Assembly (NCBI GenBank): GCA_052327205.1
Contig: CM126224.1
Location: 28,086,001-28,150,000, forward strand
Reading direction: 5' to 3'
From: Somniosus microcephalus
Taxonomy: Eukaryota
DNA length: 64,000 nt
Position 1 is the stretch's first letter, and every line of letters starts with the position of its first letter. Both the position numbers and the translations under genes were made by a program. This document shows, in pieces, positions 3,231-63,725 of this stretch. The notes beneath the pieces were generated by a model, which did no database searches, was not told the DNA's origin, and worked only from the letters and a program-made list of their open reading frames with translations.

Positions 3231-4295
3231 TGATAAATGTATCAAAAGTGGTAAAGTATTCTACTTCTTGATATTAACATCTCTCACCCTTCATTCACCC
3301 AACAATCCACTAAAAGCATGAAAAGAATAAATAAGATTCATAAATTTGCTGGAAGGTTGGGTCCTACTGTTGGAAAATGCTAACAAGGTGTATTCCAATG
3401 ATATCCTCAGTTAATGCAGTTACAGTCAGCCTGAATTAAAGCTTCACCATTAAAAACCTTCTCACAAACAATCTCATTCACCCCTCTAATCTCTGCCTTC
3501 CTGCCATGGTATTCATTTCCTTAAACTTGTCTTTGAAGCATCTTGTGATGTTTCAGTATGTTCAAGGCACGGTGCGAGATGTGCACAACATCGATGCACT
3601 CGGAGCTATTTAATCTTTTTTGGAATCTTGAGATTACGCACACTTTTGTTTGTACGAGATCTCCACAATGAATAATACTGTGTAAATGATAACAGATCAG
3701 TCAAATGTGTAGGTTCATCGAGTATTAACTTTTACATTCTCTAAATAATGAGAGCATATCAAACCAGTAACAGTACATCAATGGATTTAGTTTATGAGGA
3801 TGGGAGATTCATAATTCACAACAAGCAACAGCCATAGATGAATGATAAGATCTTTCTCATAAGTGATTTAAAGTCAACAACACTGTTTATGGTGCAGTAT
3901 TCTATTTCCTATACATCCATTATTGGTTAAATGTGGGAAAACGCAATATAATTTTTTTTTTGGTTTTAACAGTAATTTTATTAAACTAATGTGTATTTAT
4001 GAAAGAAGATTAAAGTTGTTGTGACGATGTGGTCTGCTACCTGTGTTTTGTTGTTTCTTTGACATCAGTGCATGCTGAGATACTGGTGTGTTTTTTGAGG
4101 AGAGTTGGCTATTGCTGTCAGTCCATGAAAAGCAAAGAGGGAGTTGAGTTGTGGGGTGGAGTGGGTGAAGTTGTTCTATGGGGTGATCTTCTTAATCTGC
4201 CCTGAGTCAATGAAAAGTTGTTATATTCTTTTTGCGCTGTAACAGATAACTGAGTTAAGGAAAGCTTCTTGGAGCTCAAGAGGAGATTTACAAAG

Positions 4296-5077
4296 CGCAG
4301 GAGATGCAATACCTGCCCTTTTACCTCCTCCCTTCCCACTGTCCACAGCCTAAACACTCCTTCCAGGTGAAACACCGATTTACTTGTAGTTCTTACAGTT
4401 TAGTATACTGTATTCAATGCTCACGATGTGGTCTCCTCTACATTGGGGAGACCAAGCGCAGATTGGGTGACCGCTTTGTGGAACACCTCCGTTCAGTCCG
4501 TAACCATGACCAGAGCTTCCGGTTGCCTGTCACTTTAATTCTCCGCTCCACTCCCACTCTGATCTCTCCGTCCTTGGCCTCTTACACTGTTCCAATGAAG
4601 CTCAACGTAAGCTCGAGGAACAGCACCGTATCTTTTGATTAGGTACTTTAGTGTCTTCTGGACTCAACATCGAGTTCAACAATTTCAGACTATAACCTCG
4701 GCCCCTATATTTTTTTCTCACATAGCAGCTATTGATGATTCTGCCATCACCATTTACACCTCAGCTAGAGTCATCTTTTGTTTATTAACTTGTCCCATTA
4801 CCCTCTCCTTTGCCTTGCACCATCATCCCTTTTGTCTTTTAATCTCTCCTGCCTTCCAGCCCATCAGAGGCCTTCCCTTTTGTTCTTTCCTCCCCTCTAC
4901 ACTTGCTTAAAAATCTGTTACATCTCTAACTTTTTCCAGTTCTGACGAAGGGTCACCGACCTGAAAGATTAACCCTGTTTTTCTCTCTGCACGGATGCTG
5001 CCTGACCTGCTGAGTGTTTCCAGCATTTTCTATTGTTATTTCAGATTTCCAGCATCTGCAGTATTTTGCTATTGTAT
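4296..5077 (+). mobile_element. Penelope-like retroelement, 5'-truncated: Cys-rich linker, GIY-YIG endonuclease and 3' end
   Basis: Translation RRRCNTCPF...SLVYCIQCSRCGLLYIGETKRRLGDRFVEHLRSVR (GIY-YIG), frameshifted. Flanked by a 15-bp direct repeat AGGAGATTTACAAAG (4281-4295, 5078-5092). Confidence 0.9.
4938..4974 (+). ncRNA. Hammerhead ribozyme motif, mutated copy
   Basis: AGTT-CTGACGA-A-GGGTC-ACC-GACCT-GAAA-GATT-AACC. Core and stem II are present, but the stem III palindrome ACGT is mutated. Confidence 0.6.
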
Positions 5078-14677: not shown

Positions 14678-15742
14678 ACAATAGCAAAATACTGCGGATG
14701 CTGGAAATCTGAAACAACAACAGAAAATGCTGGAAACACTCAGCAGGCCAGGCAGCATCCGTGGGGAGAGAAGCAGAGTTAACGTTTCAGGTCTGTGACC
14801 CTTCATCAGAACTGGAAAAAGTTAGGGATGTGACAGGTTTTAAGCAGGTGCAGAGGCAGAGAAAGGAGGGGGGAGAAGGGGAGGAAGGAATAGAAGGGAC
14901 AGTCTGTGCTAGAATGCAAGGCAGGAGAGATTAAATGTTGTAAATGGGGATGGCAGAATCATCAACAGCTGCCACCTGAAAAAATGGGGGCAGAGGTTAT
15001 AGTCTGAAATTGTTGAACTCAATGTCGAGTCCAGAAGGCTGTAAAGTGCCTAATCAGAAGATGAGGTGCTGTTCCTCGAGCTTACGTTGAGCTTCATTGG
15101 AACAGTGTAAGAGGCCGAGGACAGTGAGGTCAGAGTGGGAGTGGAGCGGAGAATTAAAGTGACAGGCGACCGGAAGCTCGGGGCCCCCCTTACGGACTGA
15201 ACGGAGGTGTTCCGCAAAGCGGTCACCCAATCTGCGTTTGGTTTCCCCAATGTAGAGGAAACCGCATCGTGAGCAGTGAATACAGTATATTAAATTGCAA
15301 GAAGTACAAGTAAATCGCTGTTTCACCTGGAAGGGGGGTTAGGGGCCCTGGACAGTTGGAAGGGAGGAGGTAAAAGGGCATGTGTTGCATCTCCTGCGCT
15401 TGCACGGGAAGGTGCCGTGGGGAGGGGAGGGGCTGTTGGGGGTGATTGAAGAATGGACCAGGGTGTTGCGGAGGGAGCGGTCCCTTCGAAATGCTGAAAG
15501 GGGAGGGGAAGGGAAAATGATCCATTGAATGTGGAGGCTGGTGGGGTGAAAGGCAAGGACAAGGGGAACCCAATCGTGGTTCTGGGAGGGAGAAGGGGTG
15601 AGAGCAGAAGTGTGGGAAATGGAACGGATACGGTCGAGGGCCGTGCCAACCACAGTAGAGGGGAATCCTTGGTTGAGGAAAAAGGAAGACATATCGAAAG
15701 CATGGCATCGTCAGAACAGATGCGGTGGAGACGGAGCAACTG
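14678..15742 (-). mobile_element. Penelope-like retroelement, 5'-truncated: RT thumb end, Cys linker, GIY-YIG endonuclease, 3' end
   Basis: LLRLHRICSDDA; GTFPCKRRRCNTCPF; NLIYCIHCSRCGFLYIGETKRRLGDRFAEHLRSVRK...VACHFNS...RKLEEQHLIF. 3' region homologous to 4640-5075. Confidence 0.92.
14777..14813 (-). ncRNA. Minimal type-I hammerhead ribozyme (intact core)
   Basis: Minus strand AGUU-CUGAUGA-A-GGGUC-ACA-GACCU-GAAA-CGUU-AACU. Stem I AGUU/AACU, stem II GGGUC/GACCU, palindromic ACGU stem III, GUU cleavage triplet. Confidence 0.8.
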
Positions 15743-15899
15743 GACCTCTTAATAATCCCGAATGAATAGGAAAGACTACTACTGACTCAATGTATAGAGT
15801 TTGCAACAGCAGCTCAAAACCATGCATGTCAAAGCATGTCGCCCAGGGACTCCATCTTGAGACAGTCCAATGTGACCACATTATTTGAAGGGGAAGAGT

Positions 15900-20913: not shown

Positions 20914-21706
20914 TAAACTCTGCTGTCTTTGAAGCAGCATGTAAACCAAAATGTCCACTCTCCCTCTACTCCCACTACAAGCAGAGGGATTTCCTGTAAC
21001 TGACTGGGTGTACGTGTGTACACAGGTATGTGTGTGCCATGCACACGTGGAGATCTGTGCACAGGTGTGTTGTCATTGTGCAAACTTTAAGCTTCATCAC
21101 CCTTCAGGATGCCTGGAATGCTCAAGATAAAATTGTTACATTTTGAATTGAATTATTCAGTAGTTTGGAAAATAACAGTGTAATTTTCACACTTTCGGGG
21201 AACTCAGTTTAACGTGTGAGAGAACAAATGTTCGCATGGGAAGATGAGGAGTATGGAAATTACCATTCCTGCTCAACTGCTCTTATGTAATAGATGTGAG
21301 CATATTATAGTCAAAGCTCATTTTTCCAAAGTTTGGATGTTTTAGATTTTGAACAGGGGACGTTGGGAGTTTAATGTTTGCTAAGTATACTGATGCTGCC
21401 CCCGGCCCACCATGGAAATCTGTAAACCTCCCCAGCGATCGGACATCTCAGACACCGCCCCCCTCCCCAAATTCAAAATGTAACAATTTTATTTTGACCA
21501 TTCCAGGCATCCCAAAGGGTGACAAAGCTTAAAGTTTGCACAATAACACCACACCTGTGCACAGATCTCCACGTGTGCATGGTACACACACCTGTGTACA
21601 CACACGTACACCCAGTCAGTTACAGGAAATCTCTCAGCTTTTGGTGGGGGTAGAGGGAGAGTGGACATTTTTGGCTTACATGCTGCTTCAAAGACAGCAG
21701 AGTTTA
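20914..21706. repeat. Long inverted repeat: arms 20914-21149 and 21470-21706, ~320-bp spacer
   Basis: The arms are reverse complements over ~235 bp with scattered mismatches. They give the near-identical opposite-strand ORFs MHNDNTPVHRSPRVHGTH and MHNNTTPVHRSPRVHGTH. Confidence 0.95.
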
Positions 21707-28575: not shown

Positions 28576-28758
28576 CGATATCCTTCATGGAGAAGTCTCC
28601 TGCTCAGAACATGCCATCCTTCAGATGAAGATTTACAGCATTGATATGGGAAAATCAGAGATAGGACAGGAACTCAAAATATGTATAAAAGATAAAATGA
28701 AAATATCATTAAGTTTTTTTTAAATTGTTGTCCGTTTTATCTGCCTCCTTCTAAACTA

Positions 28759-28986
28759 ATCCAAAAGCAAAATACTGCGGATTGCTGGAAATCTGAAATT
28801 AAAACAGAAAATGCTGGAAATACTCAGCAGGTCAGGCAGCATCTATGGAGAGAAAAACAGAGTTAACGTTTCAAGTCGATGACCTTTCGACAGATGAAGG
28901 GTCATCAACCTGAAACGTTAACTCTGTTTCTCTCTCCATAGATGCTGCCTGACCTGCTGAGTATTTCCAGCATTTTCTGTTTTTAT
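28759..28986. mobile_element. Fold-back non-autonomous element made of two inverted Penelope-type 3' ends, with 13-bp TSD
   Basis: Arms ~28797-28887 and ~28895-28986 are reverse complements. TCCTTCTAAACTA occurs at 28746-28758 and 28987-28999. Confidence 0.9.
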
Positions 28987-30331
28987 TCCTTCTAAACTAT
29001 GGTCAGCTCAGCAGTTCCTGTCTCCTTCCTATTTTACTTTTGGTCGAATTAAAGGTGGTACATATAACTAATAAAATGTTAGGATTTTAATTCTGACGCA
29101 GTTCTATTTTTCATGAATTCAGTAATGACATCTTACAACAGGTTCAAGGGGGTTTTACTTCTGCACATTGTTTGAAGTCGCATCTCATGTCAATTACACC
29201 AAGAAACCTCGAATTTGGAACTTGAGGAAATCTGCTCATAATTTATATTCTGGATTTTATTGCAAAAGTATAACTACAATACTCCCATTTTCCACCATGT
29301 CCCTTAAACCATTGGTATTTACACTCAATGATGCATCGGAAGAGCTGTACTTCAAGCCGTTCATCGAAGACTTCCATGGATACACAAGGCTAACTTGCCA
29401 TCCTCAGCCAGTATTGTCATTATACTGATATTGCTACTTTCACTTAATATCTACAAATTTAACATTTTGAGGTATTAAGTGAAAGTAGGAACGCCTCTAC
29501 TTGCATGGTCTTCACTGGGGAGAAATGCTGGCTCAGTGAATGTGTCTGTTCAGGTCTTGAATTTACAACTATGTGAATATTTGATATGTTATAAACGGAA
29601 GGCCCTAAATGTAATTTGTTGCGCTGTTTTGAGTATTTCCTTGGAGTGTGTAAGTCAAGATCCTAACCAGATAACAAGCCTTTGGAATCAGTGTCCCTAC
29701 TTGCTGCACTGCGGCAGTCATGTATAAATACATTTCTGGTAATACTTGTGCCACTCAAGCCATAAACCGTTTCTATTTTTTCTTTTCAATAAAGCTCTAA
29801 TTTGTTTTATAACAGCCCCCAAAATGCATTAATCAGTTTGCTCAATCATACCGCAACAGCAGATGTCTAAGGTTAGCTGCTCATTATATTTAACAACTAT
29901 GTAATTAGAAATTATGGACTTGCTTGTGCAGATGTACAGAGGTGCCTCAAACACACTGCGAGATCAGAACTGATGCTGAGCCTGTTCAATGAAAAAATTG
30001 CAGGGCTGATTTTGATTCTCCCAATGAAGTGGTAATTAACTATAATTACTAAAATGAAAATGACAGTGTAGGTTTTAATGCACAGAGATATTATTAATAG
30101 TTTATTTCATTTGCCAAGTACTAATCTTCTTTTGTATGGCTGGATAACGCAATTGCATAAACAAGTGGACCAAAACTCTACCTGGACTTGAGTTGAATTC
30201 TCGGCTAAGGCCCAGATGATATGGGTCACCTCGCACTGGCAGGCACTGAAGGAACATTAGGGATGAGCTTCCTTCTGCCAGTAGTATTGCCAAGAAAGTA
30301 ACCATGAGTACAAAAGGGGGAAACCCATGTA

Positions 30332-32505: not shown

Positions 32506-33052
32506 CTTTGCTTATCTTTCCCATCGTCTAAATAAACACACTAAAAACGAATTTGAATGCCCCTGATCATTCAATACTAAGATTTCAACTTGCACTATTT
32601 CAGTCAGGATCCAATGCTGGAATTAGCAGTCGACTACCAGTCTGATGTTTAATACTCTGAGCACTGAATGTCCTAATATGCAAAATATGCAGACATTTTC
32701 TAGCATTTAACATCTGTAAAAGTATTATTCTGCAAATTTCCTGCACTGTATATTGCAAAATGGAGCTGACGTACTGCGCAGAACTGTAGGGATATTTCTA
32801 AATATTTAACATTTGAATAAACTGCAACTAATGTAAATTATTATATGTGTTTTACAGAATCCAAAGCCATCCTATTCTTGAAAAGATTACAATCTACTCC
32901 TCAATTCAAATTTACTTATTCAAATCTACATTACTTAACTAAAATGTTGGATAATTTGCTAAAAGACTTGGAATTATTAGGAGCAGACAGTAATGGAATA
33001 ACTTATAGGAAGCTTTAATCAGTGTACTGTCGAATCAATTAAAAAATGAGGA

Positions 33053-33350
33053 TAACAACAGAAAATGCTAGAAGCACTCAGCAGGCCAGGCAGCATCCAT
33101 GGAGAGAGAGAGAAACAGAGTTAACGTTTCAGGTCTGGGACCCTTCTGGAAAAGGTTAGAGAGGTAACAGATTTTGAGCAGGTGCAGAGGCAAGAACTGA
33201 AGGAATATTCTGTGCTAGAGTAGGAGGCAGGAGATTAAATGTTGCAAATGGGGATGGCAGAATCATAAACAGCCTGAAAAATGGGGGCAGGGGTTATAGT
33301 CTGAAATTGTTGAACTCAATTTTGAGGCCAGAAGGCTGTAAAGTGCCTCA
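33053..33350 (-). mobile_element. Penelope-like 3' end with the hammerhead core deleted
   Basis: Collinear with 14712-15052, but the ATCAGAAC segment (reverse complement of the CUGAU core) is missing at ~33146. Confidence 0.85.
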
Positions 33351-35019
33351 TCTTGACTGGTTAAATAGGACTTAAAGAACTGATCTAAAATTGACAATGG
33401 AAAATGGATATTCTCCCTTGTAAAAGTTACACAGGAAACGATTGTGGCAGTCCTGTTCGAAATGAACATAACTACACAGCGCACAGAACTCAACTTCCTG
33501 AGCATAATTTAATAGTTGGATCTGTGCTCAGAATTCTGTTATTTCCTGGTGCAGCTACAAAGGATTATATATATATTTTTTTAATTTGCTGTCCAGGCAG
33601 TGCAGAGGAGGTTTGCATTCCCTCCCCAAAATATCCCATGGTATCCTGTGGGATGCTATAAGAGCTGTTGTACAGAATATAATCATTTCCTGCAAGACAC
33701 TGTCCAGAAGGCACATTTAAAGCTACTCTGTCTCGCAATCAAACATTTGCCATTTCTAAACTGGCTTACTTGCTGAAAATTAATATAAATGGTTCCATAG
33801 CTATGCAATCCTCAGAAAAACATATTCCGGCCAATGTCCTGAAATTTGTAAATTATTACCAAGCCTTAACTTGGCTCATTACTCATACTAGTGGTGTAGC
33901 AGCCTGGTTTTTTGCAAACCGGTTATATAAAACTTTGTGCCCGTCTCATTCTGCTGCCTATGACATAGTAGGTAAACTTATAGAACCTTATCCTGGAATA
34001 TTGCTGTAACAGTCTTATCCAATAGTTCTTTTTTTAAAACATGATTGGAGCTGCCATTTTCACACCAGTCCTGGGGGTGCAGTGGTGTCAGCATCAAACC
34101 CAATGGTCTCAGCACCCTGTTAACTGGTCAGTCTCCTGCACATTATAATCACTGGAGCACCCCACAGTGAATGAAAGATGCCCAGGCGCTATCAGCTTTG
34201 AAAAGTTCTTTTTTCCGCCCCCCCCACCCCACACTCTGTTTTGGAAACTTTTCAGAGGACCTTTCATAGAGATTCCCTCCATGACTTTTCAAACTAAGAA
34301 AAATGGCCCCACCCTAAGGCTCGGTCAGTGCTCTCAGCCAGCGTAGAATGGGGAATTGGGAGGGCAATAATAGCTCAATAACTTTTACAAAATCAATTCA
34401 AAAATGTTTTTTTCTCCACTTTATGCCGCCCCTGCCACACTCGCCAATCCTGGCTGAGGGGAAGAGCCTGCTTCCGGCCTACACACGTGCCATTTTGTGA
34501 CTCACCACTAAACAATGCATAAGGGATCAGGGTGGATGTTCCTACCGTTTTCCGTCCCTCCTCATGCAGAAACACCGTAGGGGACATGACTACCACCCTG
34601 AATGCTCCAGTGAAACGTGGTGACTATGTTGGTGATTGTGTCCTTGGAAAACTGAGATACTTCTCACTCAGGCATTCAAGACATGATTAGATACAGCTTA
34701 ACACCCACAGTTCCGCTACAGAGAATTATCTATCTCAGCCTGGTCATTGTAGGAAGGGACACTGAATAGAAGCTAATCACTTCCCCAATAGAAAGGGAGA
34801 GACAGTGAGAGAACAAGTCATCCCTCAGCAGCTTGCAGTGTTCTGCTGGTTGCTTTCAGACTTAACTGTGCACCCCCCAAAGAAAGTTTTAGACTTCCCT
34901 GAAGGGTCTCTTCTGTCTTCAGATCAGCTGCAGACCTGCTCAACCTTGTGAAAAAGTTGTGGCGACTTCCCCGCTCAGGCCCCGGTTAAAACTGCATCAG
35001 GGTCCAATTGGCATAATCA

Positions 35020-46457: not shown

Positions 46458-47408
46458 AATGAATGGTCATCTGACTGACGTACCCGAGACTAAATACCAG
46501 CAGAACCATAACCCGGCCAAAAAAAATCAGCAACTTCAGGAGAGAAAATAACGGAGAAAAAAATAAGAAAATCTCTGTAACTGAACAGTGATTGAAAAGA
46601 AGGTAAATTATTAATTTTTCTATACAGCAGCCAAATTGCTGCCTAGGTTGTGGGTGGCAGAGTGTTTGGGAGGAGGGGGGGAAATGCCGTCATAATTTCA
46701 ATAGCGACTAGTAAATTTCTAACAGTGAATCTTACAAAAGCAGAACGACAAAAGTGCTGAGAATTATATGTTTCATATACATATTAATCTGCGAATAAAG
46801 GTAAAAATTGTAATTAGAAAATAGGGCCGAATCCCCGCTACAAGCATTAACTGCAGGTATTAACCAACTGTTCAGACTTAGTTCTGCACTCACGGTGCTG
46901 ACAGACAGCGTTAATTTTTAAACAGATATTGGGCTAAGAATTTCAAAACAGGAGCGTCAGCCCTTTACAAGCCCACAGCTGACGCGGAATACGGCCTCAC
47001 AAATTGAGATTGTGTTGAGAAGTCTTACTTGCTCCACCTCCCCAAATACTGAAATTATACCGCAGTTCAATGCTCCCATTCAGACATCATTGAAGAGATA
47101 AGGGTGCAGTTGCCATCATTGTGACTCAGGAATTACTCAACCATTTCAGACAACAAAGTACAAGGCCAGGCTTGAGGTGTTGGCTTATAGTTTGCAATAT
47201 GCGTTTCGGGCCCAACCTCTCTACCCCCACAGATGTTCTAAGAGATAGAATACTGGACAGGTTTTTTGTATATATATTGAATTTGAATGCCATGCCATTG
47301 TCATACATCTCCAAAAATAAAGATAATAGTTGTGTTATTTTATTTTTCATCTGATTTCTTTTTGAGAGGGGAGTTACATTAATCATCTATTTGAACATTT
47401 TAAATTAT

Positions 47409-48254
47409 GGGGCCAGAAATTCGGGTCCCCACGGGTGAGTACGTGCTGGGTACTCGTGCGTAGGCCCAACGAAAGTGCCGGTTTCGTGCATGCGTGGGAA
47501 ACCGGAGCTTCCGTTCCCTTAAAGGAAGCGGTTCACAGGTCGAACGCGTGCGCTGGAGCAGCAGCGTGTTCGCCAGGAACTTCTGTTTTTTTTTAAATAC
47601 AGGTTTCTCCGGGAGGGTACGTCTCCAGCAGCTACGCGTTTAAAAAGCAGTCGCAAGGCCTGCTTTTAACAAGGTAAGTGGTGAATTAAGTAAAATTAAA
47701 ACTTTTTTTCCCCCACAGGTTTATTATTTTTAAATACTTTAAAGGTATTATTTTTAGCCCTGTTAAAAACTAATTTTTTCAAATTTAAATTATTGTTTAA
47801 AATAGTTTTTATGTAATTTATAGTTATTTTAAAAATGTGATTAAAAAAAATGTATTTGAAGTTTCAGTTATGTTTTGGGGCCAATCTCTATTTCATAGAT
47901 TTGACAGGTCTAATAGAGATTCCCTGCTCTGATTGGCTCCTCATGGCCCACGTGATCCCAGGCGACGCTTCGAACTAACTGCGCCTCTGGGATACGCAAG
48001 CACTGCGCGCCGGCAGTTGGAAGAGGCCCAGGACTTACCCTCCCGGAGAAACCTGTAAAAAAAAAACAGAAGTTCCTGGCGAACACGCTGCCGCTCCAGC
48101 GCACGCGTTCGACCTGTGAACCGCTTCCTTTAAGGGAACGGAAGCTCCGGTTTCCCGCACATGCGCAGTGCATGCACGAAACCGGCACTTTCGTTGGGCC
48201 TACGCACGAGTACCCAGCGCGTACTCACCCGTGGGGACCCGAATTTCTGACCCC
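47409..48254. mobile_element. MITE/fold-back element with ~215-bp near-perfect inverted arms (47409-47623, 48032-48254)
   Basis: GGGGCCAGAAATTCGGGTCCCCACGGGTGAGTAC... is mirrored by ...GTACTCACCCGTGGGGACCCGAATTTCTGACCCC, with few substitutions and one 11-nt indel; AT-rich core. Confidence 0.92.
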
Positions 48255-48844
48255 ATAAGCCCACGAAGGCCTGTGGGCAGCTGCAAGTGCATTGAACAGC
48301 GAGCGCCATTCCTTCGCCGCTGACCGCAAAAATCTGGGCCTAGCTTTCTAAGCGAACCGATCCGATCTTCAAACCCATTACTAATTTGGCTGGCACAGAC
48401 CTCTTTTAAGCTGCTGCAGGCCTTTCAATCCTGCAGTAGCCCAAATGGTGAGCTCCCAATTAGAGGCAGGATTATCGCCCGAGGCTCACCAACAGTATTG
48501 AAATCAAGATGACCCCAGAAAATGTAACAGAGCGATCCCACTTTATTCTAACGGGCGTGAACAGAGTCTGGTCATTATTTTGCTTGGGTTTTTGCCCAAG
48601 TGGAAAATCCTGCTCATTGTCTCCACTCTGCTGCTATCATCGGAATATCCTGGAAGTTTAAATAAAAGGTTTCACTGGAAGGGTAAACCCCTGCATTAGA
48701 CTGTGTTACTTCTCTTACTGTTTTCTGCCTGGTGTGATACAGTTTGGGATCTGTTCAACAGTCTTTGAGTGATGTGCGTGGTGAAACGCTCAGCTCTTTC
48801 TCCCAGGCGTGTTGGGAGTTTTGTTAGCAAAATTTTTTTTTAGC

Positions 48845-57454: not shown

Positions 57455-57632
57455 AAAAGATAAATCTACTAATACTGGAACTGCGGGAACTACGCAGACG
57501 GTTAATCAGCAAGTGAAAGAGAAAGATTACTTAACGCGTTGAGTGTGACCATTCTGATGAAATGTTCCATTTTTTTCCCCCCCCAGGTGCTGATTGACTT
57601 GCTGTGCATTTCTGACATCTTCTGTTTTTATT
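57455..57632. mobile_element. Degenerate fold-back of Penelope-type ends
   Basis: ...GAAAGAGAAAGATTACTTAACGCGTTGAGTGTGACCATTCTGATGAAATGTT...GTGCTGATTGACTTGCTGTGCATTTCTGACATCTTCTGTTTTTATTT; CTGATGAA is retained. Confidence 0.5.
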
Positions 57633-58142
57633 TGACTGAGTTTAGGTTTAAAACATGTCTTGCATGTGGAAAGGGATGATTTCAACCTATGATTGTGGAC
57701 TGTAATTTTCCTTTTCTCATTGAACGTTTCCCCTCTCTCATGGCTGTGGAAAGGGTTAGGAAGGAAATAGTGGCTGTCTGTGGATGAAGCAATAGGTATG
57801 TCTACATTTCTCTAAAATTACATTGTTTTTTCAGTGGTCTATCCTGATTTTTTTTTGTGGTGTGTTCTGCAGTGTCATCAGTTCAATTGGTCCAGCAGGA
57901 ATGTTTGGATCCAGGCCCCGACAGTATGGAGAAAAATCTGCCCCACTATAGCGGAGCTAATGGCTGAGTTTTCTCTATTGTAACTGAGGGGTCACACACA
58001 TTTTATCAGAAAGAAGTCTCAATTCTCAATCCATACTTATCCCCATTTCTTTTGGAAATGGAAGCCAGTTGCTGTAGCTGCTGTAATCTGGTTATCAAAC
58101 AATAAACTGATTTAAATTCTTCCCATTGAGGTTCTTCCTCAT

Positions 58143-62318: not shown

Positions 62319-63725
62319 TAGGGTTGCCAACCCTCCAGGATTGGCCTGGAGTCTCCAGATATTAATCTCCAGGAGACCCAGGAGAAAAAGCATAGGGGCA
62401 TTAAAACAAATTGTATGTTGATTTCATTTTCTTTGAGCACTTTCATTTATTAGTTGTTAAAATATTGTAGATGGGAAAATTGGCTGTTTGACGGACAGTC
62501 AAGAATCATCCACTTGAGTAATAAAGAGTCTGTTCACCTTACACTTGGTATGGGAAGGCGATGCAGCACAAGGACAGACGTGGGGGGGCAGGCCAATGGT
62601 GGGAGTGCGGGGGGGGGGGGGCGGGCCAACGGTGGGAGTGCGGGGGGGGGGGGCGGGCCAACGGTGGGAGTGCGGGGGGGGGGGGGGCGGGCCAACGGTG
62701 GGAGTGCGGGGGGGGGGGGCGGGCCAACGGTGGGAGTGCGGGGGGGGGGCGGGCCAACGGTGGGAGTGCGGGGGGGGGGTGGGCCAACGGTGGGAGTGCG
62801 GGGGGGGGGCGGGCTAACGGTGGGAGTGCGGGGGGGGGGGGGCGGGCCAACGGTGGGAGTGCGGGGGGGGGGCGGGCCAACGGTGGGAGTGCGGGGGGGG
62901 GGGGGCGGGCCAACGGTGGGAGTGCGGGGGGGGGCCAACGGTGGGAGTGCGGGGGGGGGGGGCCAACGGTGGGAGTGCGGGGGGGGGGGGCCAACGGTGG
63001 GAGTGCGGGGGGGGGCCAACGGTGGGAGTGCGGGGGGGGCGGGCCAACGGTGGGAGTGCGGGGGGCGGGCCAACGGTGGGAGCGCGGGGGGCGGGCCAAC
63101 GGTGGGAGCGCGGGGGGCGGGCCAACGGTGGGAGTGCGGGGGCGCGGGCCAACGGTGGGAGTGCGGGGGGGCGGGCCAACGGTGGGAGTGCGGGGGGCGG
63201 GCCAACGGTGGGAGTGCGGGGGGCGGGCGGGCCAACGATGGGAGTGCGGGGGGCGGGCCAACGGTGGGAGTGCGGGGGGGGCCCAATGATGGGCGTGTGG
63301 GGGGCGGGCCAACGGTGGGAGTGCGGGGGGGGGCGGGCCAACGGTGGGAGTGCGGGGGGGGCGGGCCAACGGTGGGAGTGCGGGGGGGGCGGGCCAACGG
63401 TGGGAGTGCGGGGGGGGGGGGGGGCGGGCCAACGGTGGGAGTGCGGGGGGGGGGGCGGGCCAACGGTGGGAGTGCGGGGGGGGGGCGGGCCAACGGTGGG
63501 AGTGCGGGGGGGGGGCGGGCCAACGGTGGGAGTGCGAGGGGGGCGGGCCAACGGTGGGAGTGCGGGGGGGCGGGCCAACGGTGGGAGTGCGGGGGGGCGG
63601 GCCAACGATGGGAGCGCGGGGGGCAGGCCAACGATGGGAGCGCGGGGGCAGGCCAATCCGGTTGGATGCGAAAGATCATGTGATGAAACCTCCAGGACTA
63701 CGTCCAACCAGATTTGGCAACCCTG
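62319..63725. mobile_element. Non-autonomous hAT element (Blackjack-like TIRs)
   Basis: TIRs TAGGGTTGCCAA / TTGGCAACCCTG. The 8-bp flanks GCACAGTC and GCACGACC both derive from the L2 sequence GCACGGCC. Confidence 0.85.
62581..63656 (+). repeat. G-rich minisatellite, unit CGGGCCAACGGTGGGAGTGC(G)n, roughly 40 copies
   Basis: Read directly; G-run length varies between units. Confidence 0.97.

Follow-up and report, generated by a model that had tools for sequence, protein, structure and literature searches.

Insertions of endonuclease-bearing (EN+) Penelope-like elements (PLEs) are described as an inverted 5'-truncated copy standing beside a direct one, flanked by a target site duplication (TSD), with a tail of 30-40 nt at one end and a pseudo-LTR (pLTR) over the ORF start (PMC3846280; PMC8557442). 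The origin of these tails, pLTRs and inversions is stated to be an open question in PMC8557442 and PMC11167929. With PAc, a Poseidon element from Anolis, both strands were cut and extended in vitro and ribozyme cleavage was unneeded; the protein was predicted to be a dimer, and two internal start sites bounded the tail (PMC11167929). Hammerhead ribozymes of metazoan PLEs are minimal forms with a long stem II carrying an unpaired 5' base, a short stem I and a palindromic stem III, and in Schistosoma pairs of hammerhead motifs lie 100-700 bp apart on opposite strands (PMC4209133). Metazoan non-LTR retrozymes are likewise small, carry a type I hammerhead, lack an RT and are possibly mobilised by PLEs; their repeats are arranged head-to-tail, their ribozymes are canonical and active, and they have circular RNAs (PMC7229834).

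The locus considered here belongs to a stretch of shark DNA of 64,000 nucleotides (the window), and its features are listed in Table 1. Positions within Penelope are numbered from the tail end (d1 onwards), the first base of the hammerhead core being d134. The sequence-only reading had recognised an independently inserted, non-coding element of 228 bp with perfect flanking duplications and a stem of ~90 bp, and most of this was confirmed: the insert occupied 28759-28986 between identical TSD copies of its own, and its inverted arms (28797-28888 and 28896-28987) were 92 nt long and 95% complementary. The predicted fold of the insert had an MFE of -160.1 kcal/mol (z -22.9), as good a value being reached in none of 200 shuffles. 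The arms were of unequal length owing to the extra tail on the minus arm, and the final base of the plus arm also belonged to the right TSD copy. Similar inverted copies displayed TSDs of mostly 9-15 nt. The absence of coding sequence held in one respect, as no RT or endonuclease sequence was present within the 228 bp, but not in another, since the Penelope ORF likely begins within the arms. No empty orthologous site was seen in the search of contigs from other organisms: X19 and X21 contigs matched the flanks almost exactly and continued into the insert, and a single, diverged X20 contig reached 24 nt into the tail, which is under the 31-nt bridging rule.

Table 1. Features of the fold-back insertion, in window coordinates
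Feature	Position	Strand	Remarks
TSD, left copy	28746-28758		TCCTTCTAAACTA, 13 bp
Tail-bearing Penelope arm, d1-d135	28759-28894	-	BLAST against natural copies 28762-28894, 93%
38-nt tail, minus arm only	28759-28796	-	inverted repeat begins at 28797
Minimal type I hammerhead remnant (predicted)	28861-28894	-	core CTGTCGA, stem II, GAAAC-GTT
Head-to-head junction	28893-28894		2-nt GA overlap within TC-x-GA micro-palindrome
Tail-less inverted arm, d132-d38	28893-28987	+	BLAST 28893-28987, 96%
TSD, right copy	28987-28999		TCCTTCTAAACTA, 100% identical to left copy

The locus displayed the features of an EN+ PLE insertion, namely an inverted truncated pLTR, a tail at one end only, a TSD and a minimal hammerhead, and its tail matched that described for PLEs in PMC11167929 and PMC8557442. 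In contrast to the published insertions, no ORF body was found between the arms, the two arms stopped within the same narrow interval, and such copies numbered more than a thousand in this genome. With PAc it appears to share two tail-bounding RT start sites, two-strand extension and a hammerhead at the ORF start; PAc is, however, of the Poseidon clade whereas the shark family has a Neptune-like linker, and the available text of PMC11167929 describes no fixed cDNA stop, head-to-head joining or use of two templates, leaving the steps after initiation open. The hammerhead has the metazoan PLE architecture, but unlike in the Schistosoma pairs the two motifs overlapped at their cores and both were broken. 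Identity with retrozymes was rejected, for the insert is head-to-head, wholly Penelope-derived, without an intact canonical hammerhead, and ends at d133-140 instead of at the cut site. A search of the literature, with Repbase and Dfam lying outside it, gave no account of a fixed stop, of shark fold-backs or of two-template arms, and a term search of three supplement files of PMC11167929 returned nothing on these subjects, although the coverage plots of its Fig. S2 could bear on novelty. The insert reduces the published Penelope layout to its minimum, a tail arm and an inverted arm without tail between TSD copies, and is likely not a mobile family in its own right; we consider it with good confidence to be a dead minimal Penelope-like insertion, likely assembled on site from two short cDNAs and not derived from a hairpin master.

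That the arms are fused within the hammerhead, as had been claimed, was confirmed by the position of the junction. The minus arm had been thought to lack CUGAUGA, which was wrong: it aligned through the core up to 28894, and this core carries a single substitution at 28890 (T in most contigs examined). As for the CAGATGA ascribed to the plus arm, its 'CAG' is minus-arm sequence, the plus arm beginning only at 28893, without the first two core bases, so that the arms have the GA of the junction in common. With one core substituted and the other lacking its first two bases, neither ribozyme is intact; most of the 5' strand of stem I was also absent from the minus-arm remnant, and the hairpin would bury both broken cores in its stem. 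The cut predicted for the minus arm falls at 28865/28864 (d106/105). The hammerhead was called as a motif read by eye against PMC4209133, and an Rfam search of the insert returned no hammerhead match and only hairpin microRNA models. A reading as a microRNA hairpin was rejected, these matches being weak and all below cut-offs. The ancestral core, about which the sequence-only reading had left a question standing, was intact: its invariant columns were kept in 31-32 of 32-33 long copies, the seventh base being C or T.

Penelope origin was borne out by longer copies, which ran on from an ORF with RT and GIY-YIG domains into this same end. Pfam matches of P0001 to RVT_1 (E 4.7e-6) and GIY-YIG (E 1.3e-3) were each slightly under the cut-off, and the frame of L115 gave no useful Pfam match. 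P0001 displayed a Cys-rich linker between RT and EN (C-X4-C-X2-C), which suggests Neptune; judging by this motif, the parent is likely a Neptune-type Penelope-like retrotransposon. In the tandem copy L154 the same end precedes the ORF body, and a frame opening at the core ATG runs for 159 codons through arm and tail, which makes it likely that the arms cover the ORF start. This ATG reads ACG in most long copies of the subfamily of the window copy (25 vs 6). The same Penelope family was represented in the window by further truncated copies at 4293-5075, 14680-15743, 33052-33352 and 57572-57633. The window also contained two elements with inverted ends of 220-240 nt (20914-21706 and 47405-48258), a 28-bp hairpin (29431-29491) and a tandem array (62566-63670).

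The distribution of stop points uncovered a clear preference. It was drawn from 127 tail anchors taken in chromosome order (all 100 rows of one set and 30 of the 100 of another, minus three duplicates), a sample from one chromosome in which young copies of a single subfamily are over-represented and whose alignment ends are exact to within a few bases. Position d133 was reached by 72 of the 127, and 31 of these 72 stopped at d133-140, a rate of 0.065 per base against a background of 0.0036 (18-fold, p 3e-28), which excludes randomness. According to a hand tally the ends were spread across d136-140 and not confined to a single base. The same interval was the stop of 12 out of 25 inverted arms and of 20 out of 55 copies without detected second arm (7 out of 21 among those with an adjacent TSD), and 14 of the 127 were fold-backs in which each arm ended at d120-151. 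Tail-less solo stubs shared this stop position, and loose ends with mixed flanks occurred there in contigs of three organisms (a weak hint).

The stop position corresponds to the 5' edge of stem I (d138). It also coincides with what we take to be an initiator-like CCAGTT, preceded by an A/T-rich run ~30 nt upstream, and with a presumed splice-acceptor-like site. Putative TATA and Inr motifs were described in pLTRs of A. vaga. An extra-G (cap-like) signal after d137 (44 vs 15) became weak once re-primed and duplicated rows were removed (27 vs 15, p 0.09). Re-primed ends, in which the bases just before are repeated over a short length after d137 (L316-L345), amounted to 66 exact cases against an estimated ~10 expected; they could show an exposed end at d137, with repair polymerases as a possible source and some of them perhaps being duplicates. 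On balance we lean towards the stop being the 5' end of the packaged RNA, either a transcription start or a trimmed end, and prefer this to a block or a joining bias.

The latter retains the same de novo assembly but separates the stop from the RNA start: RT would be blocked by a bound protein or by splicing factors at the 3' splice-site-like TTTTTCCAG, or the cDNA ends would be trimmed and joined preferentially at micro-palindromes. The splice-acceptor-like sequence lies at the stop itself, and in D. virilis, where transcription starts ~120 nt upstream, the homologous position is the proven 3' end of an intron (PMC2377424); yet copies lacking a second arm stop there too, with the TSD adjacent and no upstream exon common to copies seen, and no GT-AG joint ending at d136 was encountered among the 15 joints listed (217 further ones exist). 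The two commonest junction classes fall on micro-palindromes, as joining would have it, while a block would have to arise although the upstream 81 nt are predicted to be unstructured and a folded hammerhead would be expected to halt RT at its 3' edge, not at its 5' edge. We regard a block or joining bias as possible but rather doubtful.

A recurrent GGGGA upstream of d137, considered as a spliced exon or SINE head, was in fact a TSD inside a host repeat. A ~1-kb repeat with TIRs harboured, as a passenger, a Penelope stub that lacked the tail and had its own TSD (L289, L296, L300, L309 ~1238-2246); this passenger-carrying repeat accounted for 13 of 100 rows, and the four loci were 89-93% alike.

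As to the number of templates, 26 fold-backs displayed a CCA loop on one arm and a TTC loop on the other, which means that two templates entered one insertion. Their junctions were varied, and the tail was found on the CCA arm in 10, on the TTC arm in 15 and on neither in one. In one subfamily, the stem II loop differed in six out of 29 copies. Two of the two-variant copies (L267 and L279) were sisters that agreed in junction and polarity. Most had one downstream haplotype in common, so that the two templates were close contemporaries; they could have been separate RNAs or else units of a single tandem transcript. The end of the inverted arm lay at d30-49 in 27 out of 38 cases.

The two arms usually matched, both in the subfamily marker (0.97 vs 0.53 expected) and in rare alleles common to both (16 out of 105 vs 1.2 expected), and their mutual divergence of 4.9% was lower than that to other copies (9.0%). 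This matching is also compatible with two rounds of copying from one RNA or with subsequent gene conversion, and it is the point from which a snap-back of one cDNA, or twin priming on one RNA as in L1, followed by gene conversion between arms, would draw its support. Such an origin seems unlikely, however, as the inverted arm reached beyond the tail arm in 24 of the 38, so that each arm often holds sequence absent from the other; this excludes snap-back from the tail arm and indicates that neither arm was copied from the other, and the 26 copies with differing 3-nt loop variants argue in the same sense. The arms moreover overlap in the template region, which L1 twin priming does not give. Some 'simple' copies (L089, L093 and L212) displayed a tail-less inverted arm of only 8-20 nt adjoining the TSD, so that both strands may be primed as a rule.

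The existence of many TSD-flanked fold-backs joined at the hammerhead, foreseen in the sequence-only reading, was borne out. Both 14-nt arm motifs were matched exactly in at least 1,265 places genome-wide (control: 0), and a rough capture-recapture (3 out of 13 in the first 76 Mb of C1) put the number of fold-backs at ~5,000. A search with the 228-mer gathered full-length look-alikes at 30 loci (29 distinct), mostly with their own TSD and with differing junctions. Among 49 parsed of 50 listed fold-backs, 43 junction classes were distinguished by an automatic parse that errs on mutated rows, and the sole identical pair lay within a 6.3-kb segmental duplication (99.1% identity). The junction class of the window copy comprised 125 exact copies, and a second micro-palindrome class 107. 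Of the first 30 copies of the former, 17 carried the tail on one arm, 10 on the other and three on neither, and at least three loop variants and several subfamilies were represented. In a tree of 83 tail arms (124 columns, few resolved forks, one member mislabelled), 23 members with the window junction fell on both sides of the best-supported split; label changes for junction class numbered 18 against 20.4 in shuffled trees (61 of 500 shuffles as low), and a distance permutation gave p 0.18. Another hammerhead fold-back belonging to this junction class, whose tail is carried by the opposite arm, was found 22 kb before the window (G000:C23 ~28063800-28064030).

These data leave the distinct hairpin-RNA family that had been proposed, a non-autonomous analogue of retrozymes or SINEs that Penelope proteins would copy as one unit, without support. 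More than a thousand similar TSD-flanked units, two recurrent exact junctions and the ability of PLE proteins to act in trans (PMC3846280) would suit such a family, which is nevertheless very improbable in view of the junction diversity, of both polarities and several subfamilies per junction, of the missing tree cluster, of an identical pair due to segmental duplication and of two broken cores lying within the stem. A single master cannot, by our reasoning, yield both tail polarities, whereas one paired intermediate with a central mismatch could have both as outcomes. A SINE-like family with few masters was rejected on the same grounds of junction diversity, mixed polarities and lack of a cluster in this low-resolution tree, with which small re-mobilised groups of fold-backs may be compatible. 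A random one-off event, named earlier as the opposite outcome, did not fit either, the pattern being one of recurrent de novo formation at a fixed stop point.

The least credible readings are that the arms are cDNAs of ribozyme-cleaved RNA, in spite of a slight excess of ends at d100-109 (2.3-fold, p 0.02), because the predicted cut lies ~30 nt from the hotspot and showed no clear end peak (d103-108, 1.5-fold, p 0.33), with just ~4 of 100 rows beginning at the cut and ~27 of 100 being secondary insertions of another element at d109 (hand tallies), or that the insert is a one-off random inversion, which the hotspot rules out. Elements ending in GGGC/GCCC or GGCC inserted at the centre of the hammerhead AACGTT palindrome, as in L064 (~1100-2530) and L190; these AACGTT-centred insertions made up the ~27 rows, and no TSD was seen in the single case read on both sides. 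They presumably resemble Spy-type DNA transposons.

Assembly of the insert from two cDNAs could have proceeded as follows. The endonuclease would nick two strands ~13 nt apart, and each 3' end would prime RT, one at a distal start site, giving the tail, and the other ~38 nt further in. The two primers would use two template copies, usually of the same subfamily, and both cDNAs would stop at d133-140, at the 5' edge of the hammerhead. Their 3' ends might then pair via micro-palindromes (TC-x-GA or CAG-xx-CTG), each being extended on the other.

Retroviral strong-stop DNA offers a comparison for a cDNA running off the 5' end of its RNA. We tentatively suggest that Penelope acts as a dimer with two RNAs, making strong-stop-like cDNAs up to the front edge of the hammerhead, each subunit priming on one nicked strand and from a start site of its own close to the 5' end of the RNA. 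A jump to another template would then lead to pLTR and tandem forms, a failed jump to solo stubs and a double failure to fold-backs, while the hammerhead would serve to mark or protect the RNA end and to pair two RNAs, rather than to cut.

In annotation, palindromes of this kind do not warrant an entry as a MITE, SINE, retrozyme or microRNA family. What makes the single locus valuable is its mechanistic evidence, a fossil record of Penelope insertion. Together, the fold-back stubs form a large natural read-out, with two start points, one stop point and the 26 two-template insertions, and they lend themselves to direct tests in the existing in vitro PLE system. If the dimer model is true, one rule would account for tail, pLTR and inversion.
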